64,000 bases of DNA from assembly GCF_054482595.1 (NCBI RefSeq), contig NZ_CM137008.1; one strand, given 5' to 3'. The notes beneath the pieces were generated by a model. The model saw only the letters and a list, made by a program, of their open reading frames with translations. It was not told where the DNA came from and searched no databases. Position numbers and translations under genes: made by a program. Below are positions 13,872 through 53,655 of this stretch, piece by piece. Numbering within the stretch: the stretch's first letter is position 1; each line of letters begins with the position of its first letter.

Positions 13872-14306
13872 CAGTGTTTCTCCTTTCGCCCGCCAGAGTA
13901 AAAAGCAACCGTTTACGTTAATGAAACTGTCTAAACACATGCTCGTGGAGTGCCAGTTTTTGCGAGGAAGGGGAGTTAGAGACAGGAATTGCGGAGGCAA
14001 TCACATAATTGTGGTTAAACCACGAAAATGAGAAGAGAACCTGACAATGGAATTATCTGTAATTTTCTCATATTGATATTTCATTAATCATTCTGGCATG
14101 TCGCACTCTCGCATTTAATCGTTTTTATCTGGATAGCGCTCTTTTGATCGGCAATGTTGAAATAATGAAAGCGGCATAGTTTGAGGGGCAATAATTTGAA
14201 CTCAGTCGCAAAATTATAATTAAAACGGTCATGCTACCTAATATATGCCCGTTTATTGCATCGCGAAATTTGAGAAGACATAACTCATTAAATGAAAGGG
14301 ATGCAA

Positions 14307-29178: not shown

Positions 29179-29499
29179 AACCCTCTCCTTAGCTTATACA
29201 GATATCATTGAGTGACCGGTGTTGAGAAATCCGGTGGTTTAGGGGGATAGAGCAACAATCGCACCACTCTTGCCAGGTTTGGCGGGAAATATAAAAAAAT
29301 GTGAGGCGGCTCGAAACTTAAGGGCTTTTTGTGAATGAACTCACAGGTGCCAAATGAGAATTAAAATCACTCCTGAAAATTATTATTGCCAGCCCATTTA
29401 TCACTTTTTCTCTTTTCTCAAAATCAGTGATTCCTTATCATTATGATAAAGAGTGCTGGAGGGGTTAAATATTTGAACGCAATCGTTTAACTACGTTTT

Positions 29500-30180: not shown

Positions 30181-30951
30181 GTGAAAAGTATAGTTGACCC
30201 ATCGGCATTATTCATTGATTTAGGTGCGCAGAAACGTCCCACTGTGATTTCTGTTGTTGGTGCTGGGGGGAAAACCAGCTTGCTTTTTTGGCTGGCAGAA
30301 CTGCTCCAGACTCGCGGCAGGCGTGTGTTAATCACTACGACGACACATATGTTTATGCCAAAGTCACACTGGCCCGTGGTTTTCTGTCGTGATCCCGCCA
30401 TGCTTCCTCATGCGTCTCTTACATCCCCCATTTCATTTTGTTTTCACAGCTGGAAAGCGAACCAGGGAAAAGTGCAGGGATTTACGCCAGAAGCGATTGA
30501 TGCACTGGTGCAACGACCAGAGTGTGACGTAATTCTCATTGAAGCAGATGGCTCGCGTGGAATGCCGTTAAAAGCGCCTGATGAGCACGAACCTTGCATA
30601 CCCAAAAGCAGTTGCTGCGTGATTGCTGTGATGGGAGGACATACTTTGGGCGCGAAAGTGAGCACAGAAAATGTCCATCGCTGGTCGCAGTTTGCTGATA
30701 TTACCGGGTTAACACCTGATGCAACCTTGCAACTGAGCGATCTCGTTGCGCTGGTTCGCCACCCTCAGGGGGCGTTTAAAAACGTACCGCAAGGTTGTCG
30801 GCGAGTCTGGTTCATTAACCGTTTTTCTCAATGTGAGAATGCGATTGCACAAAGCGAGCTCCTTCAACCGCTGCAACAACATGACGTAGAGGCAATCTGG
30901 CTGGGCGATATACAAGAACATCCTGCAATCGCGCGCAGATTTGTGAATTAG
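30181..30951 (+). CDS. yqeC: Selenium-dependent molybdenum hydroxylase system protein, YqeC family
   Basis: 256-aa ORF with P-loop-like VVGAGGKTSL; K-12 synteny. Confidence 0.85.
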   Translation: MKSIVDPSALFIDLGAQKRPTVISVVGAGGKTSLLFWLAELLQTRGRRVLITTTTHMFMPKSHWPVVFCRDPAMLPHASLTSPISFCFHSWKANQGKVQGFTPEAIDALVQRPECDVILIEADGSRGMPLKAPDEHEPCIPKSSCCVIAVMGGHTLGAKVSTENVHRWSQFADITGLTPDATLQLSDLVALVRHPQGAFKNVPQGCRRVWFINRFSQCENAIAQSELLQPLQQHDVEAIWLGDIQEHPAIARRFVN

Positions 30952-32844: not shown

Positions 32845-33777
32845 TTACTGACAAATCACCGTTCCTGTTTTGCCTTCAATCCCTTCTTTCGCTTTGCTCA
32901 ATACGGTAATTAGTGCTTCACGACCTGCACGAGAGCGAGCAAACGAGGCGGCAGCTTCCACTTTAGGCAGCATAGAACCTTTCGCAAAATGACCTTCTTC
33001 GATAAAGCGTTCAGCATCACTTAATGACAGGCGATCGAGCCACTGTTCATTCTCTTTACCGAAGTTAATGGCCACTTTTTCTACCGCAGTCAGAATGATC
33101 AGCATATCGGCATCAATCATTTCTGCTAAACGGGCGCTGGCCCAGTCTTTATCGATAACCGCACTGGCACCACGCAGGTGGTTACCTTCACGAATAACAG
33201 GGATACCACCACCGCCAACGGTAATCACTACCTGGCCTGCTTCTACCAACGCTTTGACCGTTTCTTTTTCAATGATATCAACCGGTTTTGGCGAGGCAAC
33301 AACACGGCGATAGCCGCGACCAGCATCTTCTTTCAGAGTGTAACCCTGTTTTGTCAGTTGCTCTGCTTCTTGCTCGGTAAAGAACGAACCGATCGGCTTG
33401 GTCGGGTTGAGGAATGCCGGGTCGTTAGCATCGACTTCGACCTGGGTAACCAGCGTTGCTACAGGTTTATTAATGCCACGAGAAAGCAGTTCTTCTCTTA
33501 ATGCGTTTTGTAGATCGTAACCAATATAACCCTGGCTTAAGGCAACACAGACAGACATCGGCAGCATTGGCGAGTGTGCTTCAGTTTTTGCGGCAGCTTC
33601 AAAGGCCTGGTTAATCATGCCCACCTGTGGCCCGTTACCGTGAGTGACGATGACCTCATGTCCCTGGGCAATTAAATCAACAATTGCCTGAGAAGTAATT
33701 TTTACCGCTTTCATTTGCCCGGCCAGATCATCGCCCAGCGCATTCCCGCCCAGGGCGAGAACAATTTTCTTACTCAT
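32845..33777 (-). CDS. yqeA: Carbamate kinase-like protein
   Basis: 310-aa ORF MSKKIVLALGGNAL...; amino-acid kinase family N-terminus. Confidence 0.9.
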   Translation of the reverse strand: MSKKIVLALGGNALGDDLAGQMKAVKITSQAIVDLIAQGHEVIVTHGNGPQVGMINQAFEAAAKTEAHSPMLPMSVCVALSQGYIGYDLQNALREELLSRGINKPVATLVTQVEVDANDPAFLNPTKPIGSFFTEQEAEQLTKQGYTLKEDAGRGYRRVVASPKPVDIIEKETVKALVEAGQVVITVGGGGIPVIREGNHLRGASAVIDKDWASARLAEMIDADMLIILTAVEKVAINFGKENEQWLDRLSLSDAERFIEEGHFAKGSMLPKVEAAASFARSRAGREALITVLSKAKEGIEGKTGTVICQ

Positions 33778-37785: not shown

Positions 37786-38976
37786 TTATTTCACGCGTTC
37801 TTGCGCTTCTTTCAGCAGTTGCTCGAGCAGTGCACCTGGTTTGGCGTATTTACGGGACAGGATCATCGCGGCGATGATATAAGGCTTCCAGCTGGCTTCT
37901 TTGTAGGTAGCGATACGGTATTTTTCGAATACGCCTTCAGTCACTTCACCTTCTTTACAGGATACGCCGCTGATATCAGCTGGCAGGCAGTGCATGTACA
38001 GGGCTTCGCCATCACGGGTCAGTTCCATCATCTCTTCAGTACAATGCCAGTCTTTGTGTTGCGCGTTCTGTGCCAGACACTGTTTTTCCAGTGCTTTTAA
38101 GCCTTCGTGATCGTTCGCACGCAGCAATTCAGTACGCTCTTCCATCACTTTGTAAGGTGCCCATGACTTCGGATAAACGATGTCTGCGTCTTTGAAGGCT
38201 TCTTCCATGCTGGTGACCTGACGGAAGCTACCGCCGGAGGCTTTAGCATTGTTTTTAGCGACTTCAACGACATCCGGGATCAGGTCGTAGCCTTCCGGAT
38301 GGGCCAGGGTGACATCCATACCGAAGCGAGTCATCAGACCGATGATGCCTTGTGGTACAGAGAGCGGTTTGCCATAGCTTGGGGAGTAGGCCCAGGTCAT
38401 GGCGATTTTTTTACCTTTCAGGTTTTCCAGTGAACCAAAGTGTTCACGTAACCATGCCAGGTCAGCCATTGACTGAGTCGGGTGGTCAATATCGCATTGC
38501 AGGTTCACTAAAGCCGGACGTTGCGGCAGCACACCCTGCTTGTAACCGTCATCAAGTGCAGCGCCAACTTCACGCATATAGGCGTTGCCTGCGCCCAGAT
38601 ACATATCGTCGCGAATACCAATAGCGTCGGCGCAGAAGGAGATCATATTGGCGGTTTCACGCACGGTTTCGCCGTGAGCGATTTGTGATTTGCCTTCGTC
38701 GAGATCTTGCTGTGCAAGGCCGAGCAGGTTAAGCGCGGAAGCATAAGAGAAGCGGGTACGGGTGGAGTTGTCGCGGAATACGGAAATACCTAATCCACTA
38801 TTAAAGACTTTGGTTGAGATGTTTTCAGCACGCAGTGCTTTTAATGCTGCGGCAACGTCCAGTACTTGTTTCAGTTCATCTGGCGTCTGTTCCCACGTTA
38901 ACAAAAAATCTTTCTCGTGAAGGTGAGAAGTCAGCGAATTGATATCCTTAATCAGCTCATTAACAGTTTTCATCAT
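37786..38976 (-). CDS. ygeW: Carbamoyltransferase (ATCase/OTCase-family) YgeW
   Basis: 396-aa ORF with STRTR carbamoyl-phosphate-binding motif (DNSTRTRFS). Confidence 0.9.
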   Translation of the reverse strand: MMKTVNELIKDINSLTSHLHEKDFLLTWEQTPDELKQVLDVAAALKALRAENISTKVFNSGLGISVFRDNSTRTRFSYASALNLLGLAQQDLDEGKSQIAHGETVRETANMISFCADAIGIRDDMYLGAGNAYMREVGAALDDGYKQGVLPQRPALVNLQCDIDHPTQSMADLAWLREHFGSLENLKGKKIAMTWAYSPSYGKPLSVPQGIIGLMTRFGMDVTLAHPEGYDLIPDVVEVAKNNAKASGGSFRQVTSMEEAFKDADIVYPKSWAPYKVMEERTELLRANDHEGLKALEKQCLAQNAQHKDWHCTEEMMELTRDGEALYMHCLPADISGVSCKEGEVTEGVFEKYRIATYKEASWKPYIIAAMILSRKYAKPGALLEQLLKEAQERVK

Positions 38977-39451
38977 AAAGTCCCGGTAGTGGAATGACAG
39001 GCAAAGTGGTTTATTTCACTGTGACTTGCCAAAGTGATTGGTGTTTTCACAGCTATACCTGGGACTAACAATAAGTGTGCCAGAATTATCCACGGGGCTG
39101 CAAAAGACTAATTTGACGGATAATGTGTGGGGTTGATCACAAATTGATGCCAGCTTCCGGTTGTTTGTAAAATACGAAAACGTTTGGCTTTTTTTATCGC
39201 GTTATTTATTTGCTGCTAAGTATCAGAAATAAGATAAAGGGACAGGCGATCTCTCTTCAGTTTGATAAACTCACCGCCGTAATTCTCATATTGATATAGA
39301 AATGTGATATCTCTTCCATAATTTTATTAGAAAGTGATAAAAATCTTATGTTTTTATCAAAGCCAATTTCGCCTGAGTTAATATCATCATGATCTGTGAA
39401 CCATCAACGTCTTCAATGATCGACTTTTAAGTAAGTCTGGAAGGTAAAGCT

Positions 39452-41230
39452 ATGGAGCTTGCTACTACGCAGTCAGTATTGATGCAAATTCAACCGACAA
39501 TTCAGCGTTTTGCCAGAATGCTTGCCAGCGTTTTGCAGCTTGAGGTTGAGATCGTTGATGAAAACTTGTGTCGCGTCGCCGGAACTGGCGCGTATGGGAA
39601 GTTTCTTGGTCGCCAGTTGAGCGGCAACTCACGCCTGCTCCGCCACGTCCTGGAAACGAAAACTGAAAAAGTTGTGACACAGTCTCGCTTCGATCCCCTT
39701 TGCGAAGGTTGCGATAGTAAAGAAAATTGCCGCGAAAAAGCATTTCTGGGTACGCCTGTCATTTTACAGGATCGTTGTGTTGGGGTGATAAGTTTGATTG
39801 CCGTTACCCACGAGCAACAAGAGCATATCAGTGATAATTTACGCGAATTTTCTGATTATGTTCGTCATATATCCACCATTTTTGTTTCGAAACTTCTGGA
39901 GGATCAGGGGCCAGGAGATAACATCAGTAAAATATTCGCGACCATGATCGATAATATGGATCAGGGCGTATTAGTTGTAGATGACGAAAATCGGGTTCAG
40001 TTTGTTAATCAGACTGCCTTAAAAACACTTGGTGTTGTGCAAAATAATATTATTGGGAAACCTATCCGTTTCAGACCATTAACATTTGAGAGTAATTTTA
40101 CCCATGGACATATGCAGCATATTGTTTCGTGGGACGATAAAAGTGAATTAATCATTGGTCAATTGCATAACATTCAGGGCCGACAATTATTTTTAATGGC
40201 GTTTCACCAATCGCATACCAGTTTTTCTGTAGCAAATGCACCTGATGAACCGCATATTGAACAATTGGTTGGCGAGTGCCGTGTTATGCGGCAATTAAAA
40301 CGACTCATTAGCCGTATTGCACCCAGCCCATCCAGCGTTATGGTGGTTGGTGAAAGCGGCACGGGTAAAGAAGTTGTCGCCCGTGCAATCCATAAGTTGA
40401 GCGGAAGACGGAATAAACCCTTTATTGCTATCAACTGTGCCGCGATTCCGGAGCAGCTTCTGGAGAGCGAACTGTTCGGTTATGTTAAAGGCGCATTTAC
40501 TGGCGCTTCTGCCAACGGTAAAACAGGGTTGATTCAGGCGGCGAATACGGGCACGCTGTTTCTCGATGAAATAGGTGATATGCCATTAATGTTGCAGGCT
40601 AAATTACTGCGCGCTATTGAGGCACGTGAAATTCTGCCGATTGGTGCCAGTAGCCCAATACAAGTCGACATTCGCATCATTTCTGCAACTAACCAGAATT
40701 TGGCCCAGTTCATTGCCGAAGGTAAATTCCGCGAAGATCTCTTCTACCGACTTAATGTTATCCCGATAACTCTGCCACCGCTGCGTGAACGTCAGGAAGA
40801 TATTGAACTACTGGTGCATTACTTTTTACATCTGCATACCCGTCGTCTGGGATCGGTTTATCCTGGCATTGCTCCCGATGTCGTCGAAATATTGCGTAAG
40901 CATCGTTGGCCCGGAAACCTGCGCGAGTTAAGCAATTTGATGGAATATCTGGTTAACGTTGTTCCTTCAGGTGAAGTTATCGACAGCACGCTCTTGCCGC
41001 CAAATCTGCTGAATAATGGCACAACGGAGCAAAGTGATGTAACAGAGGTCACTGAGGCACACCTGTCACTCGATGATGCGGGCGGCACGGCGCTGGAGGA
41101 GATGGAAAAGCAAATGATCCGCGAGGCGCTTTCACGTCATAACAGCAAGAAGCAAGTTGCTGATGAACTGGGCATCGGCATTGCTACGCTCTATCGCAAG
41201 ATTAAGAAATATGAGTTGTTAAACACATAA
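39452..41230 (+). CDS. ygeV: Sigma-54-dependent transcriptional activator
   Basis: 592-aa ORF with AAA+ sigma-54 interaction domain (GESGTGKE Walker A, GAFTGA motif) and C-terminal HTH; divergent from ygeW. Confidence 0.93.
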   Translation: MELATTQSVLMQIQPTIQRFARMLASVLQLEVEIVDENLCRVAGTGAYGKFLGRQLSGNSRLLRHVLETKTEKVVTQSRFDPLCEGCDSKENCREKAFLGTPVILQDRCVGVISLIAVTHEQQEHISDNLREFSDYVRHISTIFVSKLLEDQGPGDNISKIFATMIDNMDQGVLVVDDENRVQFVNQTALKTLGVVQNNIIGKPIRFRPLTFESNFTHGHMQHIVSWDDKSELIIGQLHNIQGRQLFLMAFHQSHTSFSVANAPDEPHIEQLVGECRVMRQLKRLISRIAPSPSSVMVVGESGTGKEVVARAIHKLSGRRNKPFIAINCAAIPEQLLESELFGYVKGAFTGASANGKTGLIQAANTGTLFLDEIGDMPLMLQAKLLRAIEAREILPIGASSPIQVDIRIISATNQNLAQFIAEGKFREDLFYRLNVIPITLPPLRERQEDIELLVHYFLHLHTRRLGSVYPGIAPDVVEILRKHRWPGNLRELSNLMEYLVNVVPSGEVIDSTLLPPNLLNNGTTEQSDVTEVTEAHLSLDDAGGTALEEMEKQMIREALSRHNSKKQVADELGIGIATLYRKIKKYELLNT

Positions 41231-44893: not shown

Positions 44894-45347
44894 GCATGAT
44901 TCACCCGTAGCGGTTGCTTCCCGCGCTTCCATAGAAATCCCCTCGATTTGAACATTTGGTTCTTATGGCAAAGATTTAGTCTAAGCAGGCAAGATTTACG
45001 CCAGAAACGACGATAAGCGTTAGGGGAGGAAGGAAGTGTGATGACGTTAAAAAAACACAGATATGATACGAAACAGGACTCTGAATAGGGGCAGTGATAC
45101 GTATCAATATGAGTGGCGATAAAATCAATGTGATAAATTGGGATTATTACGCATCAGGATGGGAAATAGGGTAAAAAAGTCAGGAAATTCGATACCTCTA
45201 CAGTGAATATTTTGCTGATGATACTTCCCTTTGCCAAATGAAATTAACCTCTTTCTCTATTACCGCGTTTTTCCAGAAGCAAGAGATTGGGTATCAAGAG
45301 GCTGGCTGCTATGATATGGCGTCTTGTTTTTTAAGCGAGGAAAGATT

Positions 45348-46164: not shown

Positions 46165-46181
46165 GCCTTACGCATCTCGAA

Positions 46182-46255
46182 GCGGGCGTAGTTCAATGGT
46201 AGAACGAGAGCTTCCCAAGCTCTATACGAGGGTTCGATTCCCTTCGCCCGCTCCA
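46182..46255 (+). tRNA. glyU: tRNA-Gly (anticodon CCC)
   Basis: 74 nt: 7-bp acceptor stem GCGGGCG/CGCCCGC, anticodon loop CTTCCCAAG, T-loop GGTTCGATTCC, 3' CCA encoded. Confidence 0.95.
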
Positions 46256-46344
46256 AAACTTCCCTAACGTATTCATTCCACTATCTTTTTCTAAACTATA
46301 CGTGACGGCGCTCGTGATCCTCCTACAAAGGGGTCATACAGCCG

Positions 46345-48288
46345 ATGTCGCAGCGTGATAATCTCTATCGCCGTCCAAGTGGTATCTATGTTCTTCGGAT
46401 CACTGTTCCGGTTCGTTATCGCGCCCTTATAGGGCAGCGTGAAATTCATGCATCTACCCGCACAACCCACCTTGCAAATGCCAGAGCTATTGCCGCGTGT
46501 TTGCTGGAGAAGTGGTATGCGTCTCTGGAAGAGTTCAGGCAAGTGGATAAAGAGAAGATCAGGGGCAATGCCCCATTGTTGACTGGCGCTGGCAAAATCA
46601 GCCTGGCGTTGTTTTGCGATTCATTTGGGGTTGGGGTTGAGACTGTCGTCCAGCATCTTCTGGCAGACAATGTGCCGCTGTATGCCCTTGTGTCGAACCA
46701 GCGTGGCTTTTTGATTGATGATTTCAGCACTCTTGAGCGTGATCCTGATACGCATGGGTTCGTTTTGACTAATATTGCGTATGACGGTGCTGAGGCTGCG
46801 GTGAACGGCTATATGCAGCTTTACCAGCCTCAGTTTGCCCTTGTTGAATTGCTGAACGGGCGAGAGGTTGAGGTTACGGCATTCAGGGCTAACAACGGCA
46901 ACCCTCTTTCCCTCTGGTTGTTGGATTTACCCGGGGTGACGCTGAATGCAAGTTCTTTGTTCATCAACAACGTGCAGGCTGAAAAACTGCGTTACGTCTG
47001 GGATAGCGCGCTTGCAGCATCGGAACCGACATCAACCACCCCACCAAAAGCGCCGACAGCGGCGCTTCCTGCGGCCGCTACTATCAACCCGTATTGTAAT
47101 CCGATGCATGCAAGCATGACGGTTTCAGCAGTTCTGGAAGAGTTTCTGGCCTATAAAAATACGGGTGATATCAAGTTAGCCAGTGAGGGGAAAATTCGTT
47201 CCAGAATCGAGCACTTTACGGAGATTATGGGTGATATGTCCTTAGGTGAGCTGGATCGTGAGGTCGTGAAGGATTACGTCAGTAGAATGCAGAAAATGCC
47301 CGGCAATCTGTATTTGATGCGGCGGAAATACAAGATTTCCGACACGCGAATGTTGATCGAAAGGGCGCTGGCTGATGGTCAGCCGGTAATGAGCCGGGAT
47401 GCGATTGGCAGGCATATTGAGTCACTGGGTTCGATGTTCAAATGGGCCAAGAAGGTGCGTTACCTGCTTGATAATCCAGCCGAGAATGTGCTCGCTCAGC
47501 GCCGCGTGATGGTGCGTGAGCAGGATCGCCGAGATCTCTTCACCGAGGATGAACTATTGCGTATTTTCTCTGCTGACTGGTTCAAAACTGGTGCCGGAAC
47601 ACCTAACCAATACGGACGTTACACGAGCTTTCGCCCGTTTCACTACTGGTTGCCCCTACTGGCATTATATGTGGGCGGGCGCATCAATGAGCTTTGCCAG
47701 CTTTATCTGGCGGACATTCGCGTGGATAAAAACGGTGTTGCCTATATTGATTTTAATCTTGATGCACCGGATAAGATGATGGATGAAGAGGCACTAGCCG
47801 GTGGCGATAAATCCTTGAAAACGGTGAATGCTATCCGTCAGGTTCCCCTACATCCACGACTGATCGAACTAGGGCTACTTGAGTATGTGGATGCGTTGAA
47901 AGCTGCCGGGTATGATCGTCTTTTCCCTGAGTTGAAGCATAATAAAATCAAAGGATATCGTGCCGCCGCCTCAAAATGGTTTAACGAAAACTACTTTGGC
48001 AAAGTCCTCGGTTTTACCCGTGACGGTAAGAAAACGTTCCATTCGCTGCGGCATACTTTCATCAACGCTGTTGACAAGTATGAGACCAACGAACGCACGA
48101 TTGCGCAGCTTGTTGGACATGTCCGGGGCAGCACTACTGCGATGACAACCTATCGTAAGGATGCTGATGTGGGAGAGCAATTGGACGTGATTTCGCAGCT
48201 TTGCTACAACTTGCCTGATATTGCGCAATTCGACTCGCAAGCGGGTATCAAGGCGGTCAGTGACGCACGGCGCAGACATAAATCGTGA
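46345..48288 (+). CDS. Tyrosine site-specific integrase with a long N-terminal extension (647 aa)
   Basis: Starts 90 bp after glyU; C-terminal region carries HSLRHTF and GHVRGSTTAMTTYRKD (catalytic His-x-x-Arg and Tyr motifs). Confidence 0.85.
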   Translation: MSQRDNLYRRPSGIYVLRITVPVRYRALIGQREIHASTRTTHLANARAIAACLLEKWYASLEEFRQVDKEKIRGNAPLLTGAGKISLALFCDSFGVGVETVVQHLLADNVPLYALVSNQRGFLIDDFSTLERDPDTHGFVLTNIAYDGAEAAVNGYMQLYQPQFALVELLNGREVEVTAFRANNGNPLSLWLLDLPGVTLNASSLFINNVQAEKLRYVWDSALAASEPTSTTPPKAPTAALPAAATINPYCNPMHASMTVSAVLEEFLAYKNTGDIKLASEGKIRSRIEHFTEIMGDMSLGELDREVVKDYVSRMQKMPGNLYLMRRKYKISDTRMLIERALADGQPVMSRDAIGRHIESLGSMFKWAKKVRYLLDNPAENVLAQRRVMVREQDRRDLFTEDELLRIFSADWFKTGAGTPNQYGRYTSFRPFHYWLPLLALYVGGRINELCQLYLADIRVDKNGVAYIDFNLDAPDKMMDEEALAGGDKSLKTVNAIRQVPLHPRLIELGLLEYVDALKAAGYDRLFPELKHNKIKGYRAAASKWFNENYFGKVLGFTRDGKKTFHSLRHTFINAVDKYETNERTIAQLVGHVRGSTTAMTTYRKDADVGEQLDVISQLCYNLPDIAQFDSQAGIKAVSDARRRHKS

Positions 48289-48461
48289 GATGTGCCAAAC
48301 GCGCCAGGAAGCTCTATGGCGCGTTTTTTATCAAGGGTAGTGGAAATCATGGTGCGGAATTTGCGGCGCTTTCGTAGCTCGACTGGCGCAGCTAGATGAA
48401 TCAGATGTAACCTTCAACAAGCAGCCTCTTTCGCAATATTTAAACAACTAGCGGAGTATGG

Positions 48462-48677
48462 ATGTTAATGGCGACCTACAGACAAATTGCCGATGATGTT
48501 AAATCCCGAACGGGGAGAACAGTCAAAACATGTTGGATAGCGCATGTTAAGTCATTGCATGGGCTAACCCGCCGCGTATCTCCAAACCGCATTAGCACCG
48601 AAAGCCGTGTTTATCCTTGCCCTGATAAATGGGTTGCGGAGATCGAGCAATCAATGAGAAATCTGGGCGAGCTTTAG
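48462..48677 (+). CDS. Small DNA-binding protein, possibly AlpA/excisionase-like
   Basis: 71-aa ORF downstream of the integrase; C-terminal KWVAEIEQSM resembles the AlpA-family W-x-x-E-I motif; weak assignment. Confidence 0.35.
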   Translation: MLMATYRQIADDVKSRTGRTVKTCWIAHVKSLHGLTRRVSPNRISTESRVYPCPDKWVAEIEQSMRNLGEL

Positions 48678-49035
48678 CTCTTTACTGCGCCGCTTAACTT
48701 TTGAGTCTGTTTGGCTCTATAAGGACTGTCTCGCCGCCACGGAAATTTTCGGACGCAATGCCTGAGAGGGAGCTTCCAAACCTAGGACTTCCACTTTCCC
48801 GCACCCAACTTATCCGGCTGCTTTTAACCGCGAACACGTTGAAGGTTAACAACGTTTAGTTCATGTCTGACTGAAAGGAACGGCCACCGACAAACACCGT
48901 TAGAGAAGGTATGTAAGCTGATAGTTGAGTTGCTATATATACAGTTATTAAGAGAACTGCACCCAGACCAGCAGGAATGCAGCTTCTTTCCTGCTGATTG
49001 TCACTTTTTTCTGGAATAAGGGAACGAGCGGTAGT

Positions 49036-50052
49036 TCAAACGTGGAGACGACGTAAGGCGCCCTTGACGGCGTTTTGCAGATCGCTAACAACCGCCAGAT
49101 GAGAGCTTTCTTTCCGCAGACGCTTGTCACCGTTGACCATCATCCAGCTACGTTTATCCCTACGCCCGATGTTATTGAATGAATGCAAGCCGCGCTCGGC
49201 TGTTGCGTCGTTCACCCTACGAACTGCGTTGATAGCGGTAAACCTGAACATATCACCGTTAGCCATCATTTCAGGCTCGATTGGTTTGCGAAATTTGAAC
49301 AGGTGAGCGAGGGTTTCAAATCGAAAGTGTTGTATGTCGTTAAGGCGGTTAAGAGAGTAGTGAGTGAGCACAGCACCTTTTAACGTGACTTCAACACGAG
49401 CGCGTTGCTTTTCTACAGGTAGTTTCTGACCGTCGTCAGTGCATTTGTGGTAGACATGCCACGAGATCTTGTCCCACTTGTTACCCGTTCTCAGGTTCCA
49501 TTCAGGATTGATACGAACATCCTGAACATCAAGGAAAACATTTTGTCGAGTTACGGGATTGTATTGTCGGGCTTTGGTTCCCGGACTGAACAGGGAACTT
49601 TGAAGCCGATAGGTCATCGCATTTGTAGCGGTAATCGACCGGGCTTTGTGCCAGAAATCGCAGAAGACTTCGACCCCCACAATTTGCGGCTCGTAAGCAA
49701 ATGGGAAACGATTTTGTAATTGGTCGAGGGCGGCTTCCAACTTCCCGTTATGGTTTGCTAGTAGATCGCGAAAGCGAATCCGAAAAACGTTGTTAGTGTT
49801 GCTTATGATGGGCTTTACCCAAGGTTTGACGTAGTTACCGGGACGGTGTTCGCACGATGCCAATTTTGAGATACGTAGACCGCAGGGTTCAACCCAGAGT
49901 TTTAATCCGGTGATTTTAAGTAATTCTTCCTGAACATAGCGATGCTGGGTCAGTCTAGATAAGCTGATCGTTATGTCCAGCCAGTCGATCCCGGCTGAGA
50001 CTTTAAAGAATTTGCGGTCTGCTTCGGCAGCTTTGCATTCTCGACTCTTCAT
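49036..50052 (-). CDS. Hypothetical protein, possibly YagK/YfjJ-like (inovirus Gp2-type replication-associated)
   Basis: 338-aa ORF; N-terminal GIDWLDITIS motif and placement beside integrase/AlpA-like genes as in CP4-57-type elements; assignment from memory only. Confidence 0.4.
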   Translation of the reverse strand: MKSRECKAAEADRKFFKVSAGIDWLDITISLSRLTQHRYVQEELLKITGLKLWVEPCGLRISKLASCEHRPGNYVKPWVKPIISNTNNVFRIRFRDLLANHNGKLEAALDQLQNRFPFAYEPQIVGVEVFCDFWHKARSITATNAMTYRLQSSLFSPGTKARQYNPVTRQNVFLDVQDVRINPEWNLRTGNKWDKISWHVYHKCTDDGQKLPVEKQRARVEVTLKGAVLTHYSLNRLNDIQHFRFETLAHLFKFRKPIEPEMMANGDMFRFTAINAVRRVNDATAERGLHSFNNIGRRDKRSWMMVNGDKRLRKESSHLAVVSDLQNAVKGALRRLHV

Positions 50053-50173
50053 AGTGTGGCCTTATTGAACGGAATCTCAAACTGCCATCAGGGTAATTCG
50101 AACTGAGCAGGTTTGAGAGCATTCGAGCAAGGTAGCATAACAATTTTAAGATAAAAACCTTACTTATCAACTA

Positions 50174-50198
50174 ACTGCGTTCATATTCTGAACGCAGT
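50174..50198. promoter_or_regulatory. Perfect 10-bp inverted repeat (candidate operator) in divergent intergenic region
   Basis: actgcgttca-tattc-tgaacgcagt between the YfjJ-like gene and the serine recombinase gene. Confidence 0.4.
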
Positions 50199-50355
50199 AG
50201 TCGTTGTTAACTTAAAGGCATGAGAACACTGTCGTTTTTCATATACAAAGGGTGCTTCGGCTCACCTGTAGCGATTCAGAGAAAGCACATGGTGCTATCT
50301 GGTAAAGCCGTCAGCCAGCCTAATATGTCTTACCACTTTTGAGCGCCAACAAACG

Positions 50356-50457
50356 ACCGTTTTCTGGCACCTTTCGATCGCACACTTTCACACTGTTGGA
50401 AAATTAGCCTTGGCTTTTCTGGCAGGCCATCCTAAGTTGACACCGTTTTCTGGCAGG
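50356..50457 (+). repeat. Three direct repeats of TTTTCTGGCA upstream of the serine recombinase gene
   Basis: ccgttttctggcac (50358-50370), gcttttctggcagg (50413-50426), ccgttttctggcagg (50444-50457); 20-125 bp upstream of the recombinase start. Confidence 0.45.
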
Positions 50458-50477
50458 GGCCGGAAGAGGAGATGACT

Positions 50478-51041
50478 ATGGCGATTTTTGGCTACGGGCG
50501 CGTTTCGACATCGCAGCAGGATACTGAGAACCAGCGTTTGGAACTTGAGCAAGCTGGATGGACTTTCGACTTTTGGTTTACTGATGTTGTTAGCGGGAAG
50601 GTTCCTGCGCTGCAACGCAAAGCGTTTTCCGAAATGCTCAGCAAAATCCGCGATGGTGAAACGCTGGTTGTTGCCAAACTCGACCGACTGGGACGCGATG
50701 CGATTGATGTTCTCCAGACTGTCAGGGCGATGGCCGAGCGTAATATCAAGGTCATTGTCCACCAGCTTGGCACAACGGATCTCTCCTCTGCTGCCGGTAA
50801 ACTTCTGTTGTCGATGCTGTCAGCAGTTGCGGAGATGGAACGTGACCTACTGATTGAGAGGACCCATGCGGGTTTGTTGCGGGCAAAAGCTGAAGGCAAG
50901 AAGCTGGGAAGACCGTCGAAAATCGCCCCAGAAGTCCATAGGCTGATTATTGAGAAAAAGAATAATGGAGCCAGTGTCAGCGCACTAGCGAGGGAGTATG
51001 GCGTTTCCAGAGCGACTATAGCTGCACTATTAGATTATTAG
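50478..51041 (+). CDS. Serine recombinase (resolvase / DNA-invertase family)
   Basis: Supplied ORF 50472-51041; N-terminal GYGRVSTSQQ catalytic-Ser motif, KLDRLGRD, C-terminal HTH; second ATG at 50478 has better SD spacing. Confidence 0.88.
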   Translation: MAIFGYGRVSTSQQDTENQRLELEQAGWTFDFWFTDVVSGKVPALQRKAFSEMLSKIRDGETLVVAKLDRLGRDAIDVLQTVRAMAERNIKVIVHQLGTTDLSSAAGKLLLSMLSAVAEMERDLLIERTHAGLLRAKAEGKKLGRPSKIAPEVHRLIIEKKNNGASVSALAREYGVSRATIAALLDY

Positions 51042-51127
51042 CAATTTAGATTTTTATTACAACTTCTGAATGGCAAGAGTGCTAATCTTGGAGAGTAAAA
51101 GCCCCCAAATGGGGGCTAAGTTAATAA

Positions 51128-52903
51128 CTAATAATGGACGTTTGCGATGAATTGAGGGAGAAGTTCTTTAAAATCATCTCTATACATATCCATATCACTC
51201 TGGAAACGAGAGATTATTTCTGTAATTTCTTTGCTTTTGGATAATCTTCCTGCTGTAGCTGGTTCTAACAGTGCAGATCTTGTTAATACCCTTTTTATTA
51301 CAGGGATCCATAACTCCTTCGCATTTTCTCTATTGACGCCATCTTTGAAGGATAATGAATATTTATTAGGTATCGCTGAACCTAATATTATTTCCAATAT
51401 GCTTGCTATAGCATGAATCATTAACAGTGATACGCCAGGTTGGGTCAATAGCTTATGTTTAATAGTATCTATTTCAGGAAGCTGGTTATGCCTAAATTGT
51501 TCATTAAAATCCGATTTTATCTGGCTTATAGCTTCATTTAAAGAATAGACAAAGATAATATGACCTAGAGTAATTGTATCATCAAAAGCCTTTTTATAGA
51601 GATCCTCATCATCCCAAATATCTTTTTTTCGATGATATGCACTTGTAGGATGAGCATGAAAAGCGATCAGGATTTGTGCAACTGTATCCGTTGGTAATAA
51701 AATTCTTTTTTGAGCCGGAGTTAACACTTGGCGAAGGCCACCTGTATATAAAGCTTCCTTATTTTTCTCGAAATCCTTTCTTAATCTTTTTTGTATAGAA
51801 TCACTGGAGCGAAAATCTGAGCGCAAGACCTTGTTTTGTGAATTATTCGCTAGAGTGATTTCATTAATTAGTTCGGGATTATTAACTCTTATGAACCTAA
51901 TTGCAACTCTTAGCGTATCATCTGGATCTTTCCCTAAATTTGAAATACTACCAGTAGTTTGAGCACCATTGACAATAGAAATACCAGTAACACTTTTAAT
52001 TTGACCGAGTGTTTTGGATTCGTCAATGAAATCAATTTCAAAATCATGGACTAAGGCAGTGATTCCGTTATTAAATACAAAGAAATTTCCTGGGTGTGTT
52101 TTAGCCGTGTTTTGTATTTCATTATTTATTGAGAGGTCTTTTTTATTACTTCCTAAATAAGACCTTACATTAGCGCTGAATAGTTTATCTTCACCGTAGC
52201 TATTATATAGTTCTTTAATAAATTTCCCTGGCATAAGGGTAGAAAATGAGGCCCAGTTTTCATTAGAGTTTTGATAAAAGCCATGCATACCAGTCAGCGA
52301 TATTTTATCTGATATCAAAATTGGACTGTGTTGAGAGTTATATAATTCATCAAGTGAACTTAAACCCATTTGCTTGGAGCTTATTCTCAGGTTATCAATA
52401 TGATAAATTGAGTTTAATTTGTCCATAATTGAACGCCCAATCGAATGTAAAGGTTTCTCACATTCTGGTGTTTCAGGGCAGTTATGAACAAACCATACAT
52501 TTATTTTCTCAATTTCATTATTTCTTAAAGCATCTCTTGCATCTTTTACCTGATCCCTTATCCTCAGAGGTATATTCTCTATATCAGCGGAAAGCAACGC
52601 GGTTTCTGCATAAGCTGTTTCTTGGGCCTTAGACGGCTTGGCCCCTTGAGGTCGAAATATAGTAGATTGATAAGATTGTATAAGATATATTTGTTTGCTT
52701 TCTCTATCGGTCATTAATATGTCTATATTTTCATCATCTCCCCCTTCAGTTATTATGTCGGGAGCTATCAATTCAATGCTGTCTATATTGTTATGTAACT
52801 CTATTGCATATAATGCACAATTTAAATTACCATATTTTTCTAGATCTTTTCTCTGTTGCAATGCTGACCAGAAAGAACTATCTGAAAGCTGTGTATATGT
52901 CAT
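51128..52903 (-). CDS. Hypothetical 591-aa protein, candidate abortive-infection (AIPR-like) phage-defence protein
   Basis: Long uninterrupted ORF in a visibly AT-rich segment with A/T-rich codon usage unlike flanking core genes; no Walker A motif; family assignment by size/context only. Confidence 0.6.
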   Translation of the reverse strand: MTYTQLSDSSFWSALQQRKDLEKYGNLNCALYAIELHNNIDSIELIAPDIITEGGDDENIDILMTDRESKQIYLIQSYQSTIFRPQGAKPSKAQETAYAETALLSADIENIPLRIRDQVKDARDALRNNEIEKINVWFVHNCPETPECEKPLHSIGRSIMDKLNSIYHIDNLRISSKQMGLSSLDELYNSQHSPILISDKISLTGMHGFYQNSNENWASFSTLMPGKFIKELYNSYGEDKLFSANVRSYLGSNKKDLSINNEIQNTAKTHPGNFFVFNNGITALVHDFEIDFIDESKTLGQIKSVTGISIVNGAQTTGSISNLGKDPDDTLRVAIRFIRVNNPELINEITLANNSQNKVLRSDFRSSDSIQKRLRKDFEKNKEALYTGGLRQVLTPAQKRILLPTDTVAQILIAFHAHPTSAYHRKKDIWDDEDLYKKAFDDTITLGHIIFVYSLNEAISQIKSDFNEQFRHNQLPEIDTIKHKLLTQPGVSLLMIHAIASILEIILGSAIPNKYSLSFKDGVNRENAKELWIPVIKRVLTRSALLEPATAGRLSKSKEITEIISRFQSDMDMYRDDFKELLPQFIANVHY

Positions 52904-53053
52904 GATAAAACCCTTTTTATTAATATGTAAATTTTATCTCATTCTATCTAAAATCATTTTTTTATATCTAATGATATAACATTAAATGTATGTGAAATAT
53001 TTAATGGTATCTGCTATGCCTTTGTTTATTAAAGCACAGTCTTCAAATCAGGG

Positions 53054-53161
53054 TCAACCAAACCACAGTATATTATATCCAACTATTGGATGTCGGTAAG
53101 CGACTAAGGCTAGTTGAGGTAACACATAAATAATACAATACCTTAGGGTATTGAGTTTCAT
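53054..53161 (-). CDS. Possible small ORF (35 aa, hydrophobic) with strong Shine-Dalgarno
   Basis: Minus-strand GAAGGAGGGACAGG-ATG...TGA encoding [35 protein letters not shown]; lies between IS2 and the 591-aa gene; several rare codons, so may be non-coding. Confidence 0.2.
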
Positions 53162-53289
53162 CCTGTCCCTCCTTCTACGAACGTATCCACGCAGCGACTA
53201 GACTGGCCCCCTGAATCTCCAGACAACCAATATCACTTATTTAAGTGATAGTCTTAATACTAGTTTTTAGACTAGTCATTGGAGAGCAG

Positions 53290-53655
53290 ATGATTGATGT
53301 CTTAGGACCGGAGAAACGCAGACGGCGTACTACACAGGAAAAGATCGCTATTGTTCAGCAGAGTTTTGAACCGGGAATGACAGTCTCCCTTGTTGCCCGG
53401 CAACACGGTGTGGCAGCCAGCCAGTTATTTCTCTGGCGCAAGCAATACCAGGAGGGAAGTCTTACTGCTGTGGCCGCAGGAGAACAGGTCGTTCCTGCCT
53501 CTGAACTTGCTGCCGCCATGAAGCAGATTAAAGAACTCCAGCGCCTGCTCGGCAAAAAAACGATGGAAAATGAACTCCTTAAAGAAGCCGTTGAATACGG
53601 GCGTGCAAAAAAGTGGATAGCGCACGCGCCCTTATTGCCCGGGGATGGGGAGTAA
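53290..53655 (+). CDS. insC: IS2 transposase OrfA
   Basis: [41 protein letters not shown], matches remembered IS2 InsC. Confidence 0.95.

Follow-up and report, generated by a model that had tools for sequence, protein, structure and literature searches.

The closest precedent for the action of CRP at a divergent pair consisting of a gene for a bacterial enhancer-binding protein (EBP) and a sigma-54-dependent operon is prpR-prpBCDE, where the EBP gene and the operon promoter both depend on CRP, the latter directly and hence with catabolite repression (PMC5566544). Another relevant system is the sigma-54 regulon of DioR in Clostridiales, which encompasses dpaL, ygeW-ygfK-ssnA-ygeY, yqeB and xdhC-type genes (PMC6615313). 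In Escherichia coli, the ygeW promoter examined here already has a published record. According to the PRECISE-1K study (PMC10602906), sigma-54 promoters upstream of xdhABC and ygeWXY were identified by Reitzer & Schneider 2001, and a sigma-54 promoter was predicted for b2870/ygeW by Francke 2011 (PMC3162934). Binding in vivo comes from the ChIP-seq analysis of Bonocora et al. 2015 (PMC4591121, Table 1), in which site OS30 is listed with the motif CTGGCACACTTATTGTT, the identical 17-mer (peak 3,004,190; fold-above-threshold (FAT) 3; gene ygeW; distance 80; PSSM 9.84). The ChIP occupancy of OS30 is low (FAT 3), and the authors speak of "binding sites", not promoters; that work showed binding only, not transcription or the identity of the activator (PMC4591121). 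Genomic SELEX with the RpoN holoenzyme produced a peak in the ygeV/ygeW spacer at 3,004,270 (53-55%), both with and without NtrC (Shimada 2021; PMC8743547). Our search of the literature returned no mapping of the ygeW start and no report of rpoN- or ygeV-dependent transcription from the ygeW promoter.

Genomic context of the ygeV-ygeW spacer

The window, that is, the whole stretch of 64,000 nucleotides analyzed here, comes from the part of the E. coli chromosome that contains ygeV and ygeW. Over the 621 bases at the site of interest, many complete E. coli chromosomes match it with 100% identity, and the region is present in 5,181 of the 5,426 E. coli genomes. The strain is not K-12; nonetheless, its ygeV-ygeW spacer is 100% identical to that of many E. 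coli genomes. The gene order, taken from the annotation of an identical strain, is ssnA, ygfK, mocA, yqeC, yqeB, arcC/yqeA, hyuA, ygeY, dpaL/ygeX, ygeW, followed by the divergent ygeV and by xdhCBA, which places the promoter within the E. coli island for anaerobic degradation of uric acid and purines. Downstream of ygeW, the genes ygeX/dpaL, ygeY, hyuA and yqeA/arcC continue on the same strand to about position 32845. The ygeW open reading frame starts with the ATG at 38976, and a second ATG, at 38973, is the start chosen by RefSeq. The two divergent genes are separated by a spacer of 475 bp. The coordinates of the genes, promoters and candidate regulatory sites are collected in Table 1.

Table 1. 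Genes, sigma-54 sites and candidate regulatory elements in the window (centres of dyads and CRP-like sites are given relative to the predicted starts)
Feature	Positions	Strand	Sequence	Details
ygeW	37786..38976	-		First operon gene; knotted carbamoyltransferase; ORF list, RefSeq, Pfam OTCace_N + OTCace
ygeV	39452-41230	+		Divergent bacterial enhancer-binding protein: PAS, AAA+ sigma-54 interaction domain, HTH_8 (Pfam)
ygeW sigma-54 promoter core	39067..39083	-	CTGGCACACTTATTGTT	-24 GG at 39081-39080; -12 GT at 39069-39068
ygeW predicted transcription start	39056	-		12 nt downstream of the -12 position; 80-nt 5' UTR; sigma-54 geometry; K-12 about 3,004,203
ygeW CRP-like site	39126..39141	.	TGTGATCAACCCCACA	Centre -77.5; one mismatch to TGTGA-N6-TCACA
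ygeW candidate UAS dyad A	39283..39297	.	ATATCAATATGAGAA	Centre -234; within conserved block 39282-39311; pattern search
ygeW candidate UAS dyad B	39254..39268	.	TTATCAAACTGAAGA	Centre -205; pattern search
xdhABC sigma-54 promoter	44988..45004	-	CTGGCGTAAATCTTGCC	PWM rank 3; Bonocora site OS29
xdhA CRP-like site	45037-45052			Centre -67.5
xdhA dyad	45122-45136			Centre -152
xdhA second, weaker dyad	45101-45115			About 21 bp closer to the promoter
ygfK-ssnA sigma-54 promoter	29251..29267	-	GTGGTGCGATTGTTGCT	PWM rank 5; Bonocora site OS31
ygfK CRP site (perfect)	29330-29345			Centre -97.5
ygfK second CRP-like site	29300-29315			Centre -67.5
ygfK dyad (perfect)	29435-29449			Centre -202
ygfT sigma-54 site	14244..14260	+	TATGCCCGTTTATTGCA	Bonocora site OS32
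ygfT CRP-like site	14195-14210			Centre -68.5
ygfT dyad	14065-14079			Centre -199
Intragenic sigma-54 promoter inside yqeC, driving yqeB	30582..30598	+		Bonocora site IS34
yqeC-internal CRP-like site	30523-30538			Centre -78.5

The sigma-54 promoter of ygeW

The minus strand around the core reads ttcTGGCACACTTATTGTTagtccc, and a longer reading that spans the core is ttcTGGCACACTTATTGTTagt. The core consists of TGGCAC (39082-39077), ACTTA (39076-39072) and TTGTT (39071-39067). A preliminary description, made from the sequence alone, had placed this motif within 39060-39110, about 100 nt from the ygeW start, and had pointed out that the GC of the -12 element is GT here. The exact sequence is indeed found on the minus strand at 39082..39067, where the -24 element precedes the ATG by 106 nt and the -12 element precedes it by 92 nt; the -12 element is TTGT, where the G is kept and the C is replaced by T, and the N5 spacing is exact.

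A search of the window for the consensus TGGCAC-N5-TTGCW showed that the ygeW site was the sole match with at most one mismatch and yielded 44 matches with at most two mismatches, compared to the expectation of 42. Because 3.1 matches with at most one mismatch are expected by chance in 64 kb, the consensus count by itself is not significant, and therefore scoring with a position weight matrix (PWM), positional reasoning and conservation were used instead. The PWM was derived from 38 independent intergenic ChIP-mapped sites (Bonocora et al.), with the four sites located in this window excluded. With such scoring, a kind of check that had been suggested in the preliminary description, the ygeW site reaches 15.99 bits, the highest value in the 64 kb window on either strand (the next one is 12.25 bits) and about the median that the 38 training sites reach in leave-one-out scoring. 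The expected number of 16-bit scores is 0.24 (iid) to 0.53 (first-order Markov) per 64 kb and only about 0.001-0.002 in the ygeV-ygeW spacer on the ygeW strand. The orientation of the promoter matches the sense of ygeW (minus strand), and the distance is plausible, with the predicted start 80 nt before the ATG; the resulting untranslated region of 80 nt agrees with the "distance 80" given for OS30 (Bonocora 2015).

Several other elements in the spacer were considered and rejected. The second -24-like element, TGGCATCAATTTGTGA at 39153-39137, scores 2.6 bits only. A riboswitch or other structured RNA was dismissed for the 80-nt leader, given that it matches no Rfam family (the best hit, with E = 0.26, falls well short of the gathering score) and that its fold is not significant (z = -0.72). 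As to a sigma-70 promoter for ygeW, the sole match in the scan overlaps the start codon, and the hexamer GATAAT (39094-39089) beside the -24 element is not retained in the other genera; no conserved sigma-70 promoter for ygeW was seen in the promoter scan combined with the alignment of 12 genera described below.

Conservation of the promoter across genera

Orthologous loci were collected from 11 genera, namely, Enterobacter, Cedecea, Pluralibacter, Serratia, Kluyvera, Citrobacter, Klebsiella, Raoultella, Trabulsiella, Atlantibacter and Intestinirhabdus, which together with E. coli make 12. The wider ortholog set came from a protein search seeded with the Enterobacter ortholog of YgeV; the YgeV proteins of these loci share 70-87% identity with this ortholog, which in turn is 69% identical to YgeV of E. 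coli. In each of the 11 loci, ygeW and ygeV are divergent, and about 460-500 bp separate them.

The 12-way alignment of the spacer has a mean column identity of 62%, and large stretches of it are unalignable. The pattern TGGCAC-N2-TTATTGTTA, which covers the whole of the -24 and -12 elements, with the non-consensus T at -12 among its positions, does not vary among the 12 genera of Enterobacterales. The other invariant segments are GTGA-N7-C.CA in the CRP-like site, ATCACA..T...T.TCA...TGA.AA (E. coli 39311-39283), TTATCA...TG (E. coli 39268-39257) and the ribosome-binding region. The -24 and -12 bases are under strong purifying selection, and, as judged from the alignment, this conservation is the decisive evidence that the site is real. 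The proposal of the preliminary description that this near match to the -24/-12 consensus is a promoter is thus backed by the published ChIP-seq and genomic SELEX binding, by the PWM and by conservation. The sigma-54 promoter of ygeW is real, ordinary and previously published, and the preliminary description, while correct, did not bring it to light for the first time.

YgeV and the candidate enhancer

The preliminary description had also identified the divergent neighbor, ygeV, as the gene for an AAA+ sigma-54 activator, and the domain analysis concurs. The domains of YgeV in Pfam are PAS, the AAA+ domain Sigma54_activat (E = 8e-71), AAA_lid_14 and, at the C terminus, an HTH_8 of the Fis type at about residues 540-592; its motifs are intact, including the GAFTGA loop (347-352), the Walker A motif GESGTGK (300-306) and Walker B DEIG. 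Given these domains and the intact GAFTGA and Walker motifs, YgeV is a competent EBP. The "YgeV iModulon" contains ygeWXY and is nearly silent under laboratory conditions, and the expression of ygfT is reduced in a ygeV mutant, as stated in the same study (PRECISE-1K, PMC10602906). Iwadate & Kato 2019, as quoted elsewhere, found that ygeV is needed for formate-dependent consumption of uric acid, and strong induction of ygfK and ygfT by uric acid is described in the cited literature. Another signal, indole, has also been proposed for YgeV, along with the name "IsrR" and a link to virulence (PMC9426417). Adjacency of the genes, the iModulon, the requirement for uric-acid consumption and an upstream dyad that is common to the promoters of the island jointly point to YgeV as the probable activator of the ygeW promoter.

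The promoters in question are, apart from that of ygeW, those of xdhABC, ygfK-ssnA and ygfT, along with the one inside yqeC, which was validated by mutation (Bonocora 2015; PMC4591121). Like the ygeW site, all these sister promoters are ChIP-mapped sigma-54 sites; their -24/-12 cores are weaker (7-12 bits compared to 16 for ygeW), and they keep the GC at -12. A conserved dyad, TATCA-N3-TGATA, precedes the four intergenic sigma-54 promoters, those of ygeW, xdhA, ygfK and ygfT, by 150-235 bp; the promoter inside yqeC has no upstream dyad but only a CRP-like element.

A scan of the window for TTATCA-N3-TGATAA, allowing at most two mismatches, gave 9 matches against 2.36 expected, a number reached in 0 of 100 shuffles; 5 of these matches are located in the upstream regions of the four promoters. 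Enumeration of all dyads with 5-mer halves and gaps of 0-12 in the -290..-100 regions of the same four promoters returned TATCA-N3-TGATA as the only dyad common to all four, whereas 0.4% of the composition-matched shuffles give any such dyad; the positional windows behind the enrichment statistics were picked after viewing the data. At the ygeW promoter, the dyad is conserved in all 11 other genera: in dyad A, T.TCA-N3-TGA.AA and the adjoining ATCACA are invariant, as is TTATCA-N3-TG in dyad B, and the identical 15-mer of dyad A also occurs upstream of ygfT. The dyad of the ygfK promoter is conserved in every locus that reaches that far, with the elements of this promoter conserved in 7 genera. 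At xdhA, the dyad is conserved as two copies 21 bp apart; these dyads and a TCACA half-site are conserved in 4 genera.

Co-occurrence and conservation suggest that TATCA-N3-TGATA is probably the operator, or enhancer site, of YgeV; its sequence is AT-rich, and binding by a different factor is conceivable. We found neither a published YgeV site nor a description of this dyad in the literature. Binding sites of other regulators were also considered for the dyad. The FNR box was rejected: at xdhA, TTGATACGTATCAC fits TTGAT-N4-ATCAA, but its right half is not conserved, and the order of the half-sites is opposite. The Fur box and the DnaA box, which were compared by eye only, are mismatched in the order of half-sites or in spacing.

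CRP-like sites at the island promoters

With the criterion of at most two mismatches to TGTGA-N6-TCACA, CRP-like sites are found at -67 to -98 relative to the predicted starts in all five sigma-54 promoters of the island. The chance of finding such a site at -100 to -60 in five of five promoters is about 1e-7, for an interval that was chosen post hoc. Published targets of CRP in genomic SELEX include ygeV<>ygeW, ygfK and ygfT<>ygfU (PMC3105977), and a "native Crp-binding site" in the ygeV-ygeW spacer is mentioned in PMC12507026. The same study reports that glucose represses the degradation of uric acid in the wild type and does not do so when the spacer carries constitutive promoters instead (PMC12507026). 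These physiological observations are consistent with a positive role of CRP at ygeW. It is physiology only that speaks for such a role, because CRP is inhibitory at the sigma-54 promoters glnAp2 and dctA.

A model of ygeW regulation and its alternatives

Taken as a whole, we find it highly likely that the locus represents a sigma-54 (RpoN) promoter of ygeW-ygeX-ygeY-hyuA-yqeA that operates through looping from YgeV-bound dyads, with the participation of CRP. Sigma-54 RNA polymerase binds the -24 GG and -12 GT (39083-39067, minus strand) as a closed complex, a step shown by the published ChIP-seq and genomic SELEX data, and transcription would start near 39056. Opening of this complex would require ATP-driven remodelling by the divergently encoded AAA+ protein YgeV, oligomers of which, assembled on the dyads about 205 and 234 bp upstream, may reach the polymerase by DNA looping. 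cAMP-CRP at -77.5, between the enhancer and the promoter, would assist this process and render expression sensitive to glucose, probably by providing the DNA bend that IHF gives at other sigma-54 promoters. Because the three-part layout recurs at xdhA, ygfK and ygfT, the island would be switched on as one YgeV regulon.

A more far-reaching proposition would be that the five island promoters form one regulon, that the dyad at four of them is an undescribed YgeV operator, that CRP has a positive, IHF-like architectural role at all five, and that the invariant -12 T of the ygeW promoter is selected, tuning the closed complex. On this combined proposition our judgment is evenly divided. If the positive or architectural role of CRP is borne out, it would explain the glucose repression of uric-acid degradation.

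These readings have to be weighed against alternatives. In one of them, the match to the sigma-54 consensus has arisen by accident in an AT-rich spacer and has no function. The numbers that speak for chance are those given above, namely, 3.1 matches with at most one mismatch and 0.24-0.53 PWM scores this high expected per window, together with a -12 element without the canonical C. Nevertheless, because binding is on record from ChIP-seq and genomic SELEX and all 12 genera share the site unchanged in an otherwise poorly conserved spacer, chance is in effect excluded; furthermore, the site is located on the right strand and at the right distance, beside an EBP gene, a placement with a probability of about 0.001-0.002, and the same TTGT is present at -12 in the confirmed pspA and pspG promoters. 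Somewhat more substance can be given to a non-productive sigma-54 site, where the polymerase would be parked, perhaps as a roadblock or repressor, and ygeW would be transcribed from a CRP-dependent sigma-70 promoter. Bonocora et al. warn that many sigma-54 sites may never yield transcription (PMC4591121), and the ChIP signal is low (FAT 3). In addition, the -24 element has a conserved CRP site 50 bp upstream of it, and the GATAAT hexamer is present at 39094-39089 in E. coli. Against this, the only sigma-70 promoter that the scan yields upstream of ygeW overlaps the ATG, the GATAAT of E. coli is not retained in the other genera, in contrast to the invariant -24 and -12 elements, and CRP at -51.5 from the sigma-70 start would be neither canonical class I nor class II. 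An intact EBP gene adjoins the site, and the enhancer-like dyads are conserved. Because no sigma-70 promoter is conserved, we consider non-productive binding very unlikely.

Alternatively, the binding of sigma-54 could be genuine, with a different EBP, such as NtrC under nitrogen limitation, activating the promoter and YgeV acting elsewhere. Compatible with such a scheme, the yqeC-internal sigma-54 promoter was discovered through induction by nitrogen limitation, YgeV has been connected not with purines but with signalling by indole and in virulence, and our literature search did not find a direct experiment on YgeV at the ygeW promoter. Activation by another EBP is nevertheless unlikely because the divergent pairing of ygeV and ygeW is conserved in 12 of the 12 genera and the dyad is specific to the island promoters. 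The presence of ygeWXY in the YgeV iModulon, the requirement of ygeV for uric-acid consumption (as quoted from the primary report) and the control of the same genes by YgeV relatives in Firmicutes (the DioR regulon) argue in the same direction, that is, for activation by YgeV.

The additions made here to the published record are modest extensions: the site is invariant across genera, odd -12 base included; the dyad is a candidate operator of YgeV; and CRP-like sites are regularly placed at all five sigma-54 promoters of the island. The operon is part of the uric-acid degradation pathway of gut bacteria that is now being engineered for gout therapy, where the spacer was simply replaced (PMC12507026). 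A map of the sigma-54, CRP and probable YgeV sites could help in the design of reporters, in finding the inducer of YgeV and in rational de-repression of the pathway. If confirmed, the dyad would be the first defined DNA target of YgeV (IsrR) and could be used to determine whether the effects of YgeV on virulence are direct. The case also indicates that a first-stage reader is able to recognize sigma-54 promoters from raw sequence.

Comparison with known systems

The site is the same object as OS30 (Bonocora 2015, PMC4591121): the same 17-mer on the ygeW-sense strand, 80 nt from the gene, with no difference in sequence. The T at -12 has a precedent because the confirmed pspA (TTGGCACGCAAATTGTA) and pspG (TTGGCATGATTCTTGTA) promoters also have TTGT rather than TTGC at this position (PMC4591121, Table 1). 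These promoters differ from that of ygeW in that they are activated by PspF, use IHF and serve in the stress response, and they have no upstream dyad in common with it.

In overall layout, the locus resembles prpR-prpBCDE of E. coli and Salmonella, where the gene of the EBP and a catabolic operon with a sigma-54 promoter likewise diverge from one shared spacer. PrpR senses 2-methylcitrate and needs IHF, whereas at ygeW the presumed effector is uric acid or one of its derivatives; here, no IHF site was found, and a CRP-like site is located between the enhancer and the promoter. The sensory domains of PrpR and YgeV are unrelated as far as Pfam shows.

The DioR system of Clostridiales is similar in content, with an EBP related to YgeV governing the same kinds of genes via sigma-54 promoters, and differs from the ygeW island in belonging to another phylum and having another gene order. 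In the Firmicute loci examined, YgeV-like genes, the products of which are 34-39% identical to YgeV over the full length, adjoin strong sigma-54 motifs.

Elements at and near the sigma-54 promoters

At each of the other sigma-54 promoters of the purine/uric-acid island (those of ygfK, xdhA and ygfT, and the one inside yqeC), a CRP-like site is present in the same placement as at ygeW (see the table).

Features at and around the sigma-54 promoters of the island
Feature	Position	Strand	Centre	Sequence or location
CRP-like site, ygfT promoter	14195-14210		-68.5	
CRP-like site, ygfK promoter	29330-29345		-97.5	
CRP-like site, yqeC-internal promoter	30523-30538		-78.5	
CRP-like site, xdhA promoter	45037-45052		-67.5	
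Dyad	30825-30839			TTCTCAATGTGAGAA, inside yqeC
PurR-box-like sequence	39174-39189	-		AGCCAAACGTTTTCGT, between dyads and CRP site
Perfect inverted repeat	39335-39359			TGATAAAAA-N7-TTTTTATCA
Candidate ygeV -10 element	39377-39390	+		TAATAT, conserved block
FNR-box-like sequence	about 45095-45108	-		TTGATACGTATCAC, upstream of xdhA
tRNA-Gly, then site-specific integrase, recombinase and AIPR-family protein	about 46180-53500			downstream of actS/ygeR

Elements resembling the dyad (TATCA-N3-TGATA, the candidate binding site of the sigma-54 activator YgeV) also occur inside yqeC and elsewhere in the ygeW-ygeV spacer. About 225 bp upstream of the yqeC dyad is the intragenic sigma-54 promoter (30582-30598), which has been experimentally validated and drives yqeB. 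The yqeC dyad is kept as TTCTCA-N3-TGAGAA in eight other genera, with TGATAA as the right half in Raoultella, and could represent either a downstream enhancer or mere coding constraint. The inverted repeat in the ygeW-ygeV spacer contains the half-sites of the dyad, but their order and spacing differ, and the spacer alignment shows its conservation across genera to be only partial. The FNR-box-like sequence, which overlaps the second xdhA dyad, does not keep its right half in the other genera compared.

The PurR-box-like sequence matches the purF-type PUR box at 13 of 16 positions. Among the 12 genera of the spacer alignment, it is kept in E. coli, Citrobacter, Atlantibacter and Trabulsiella and is not conserved in the other eight. 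A computational study assigned ygeW to an extended PurR regulon (PMC4576408).

Gene starts, the YgeV N-terminus and the adjacent island

Two adjacent ATG codons open ygeW (38973-38978, minus strand). The mechanical ORF call starts at the first (38976); all orthologs in the spacer alignment align at the second (38973), where RefSeq also places the start, yielding a 395-aa product. In the same 12-genus alignment, the conserved block about 62-73 nt upstream of the ygeV ATG reads GATA(C/T)TA on the minus strand, and its plus strand may provide the -10 element of the ygeV promoter. No Pfam family matched YgeV residues 1-160 (39452-39930); these N-terminal ~160 residues, which include the Cys cluster CEGCDSKENC, presumably form a signal-sensing module. 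Downstream of actS/ygeR, the segment with the tRNA-Gly gene and, after it, the genes for the integrase, the recombinase and the abortive-infection-like AIPR-family protein is, by the annotation of an identical strain, a strain-specific integrated island.

YgeV-like activators in Firmicutes

Among the matches listed, YgeV-like activator genes with 34-39% identity across their whole length were found in five Firmicute-type loci (L003, L005, L006, L007 and L012), including those of Clostridium and Sedimentibacter. Very strong sigma-54 motifs (17.5-20 bits) adjoin these genes, an arrangement consistent with an ancient origin of sigma-54 control over the purine/uric-acid pathway.
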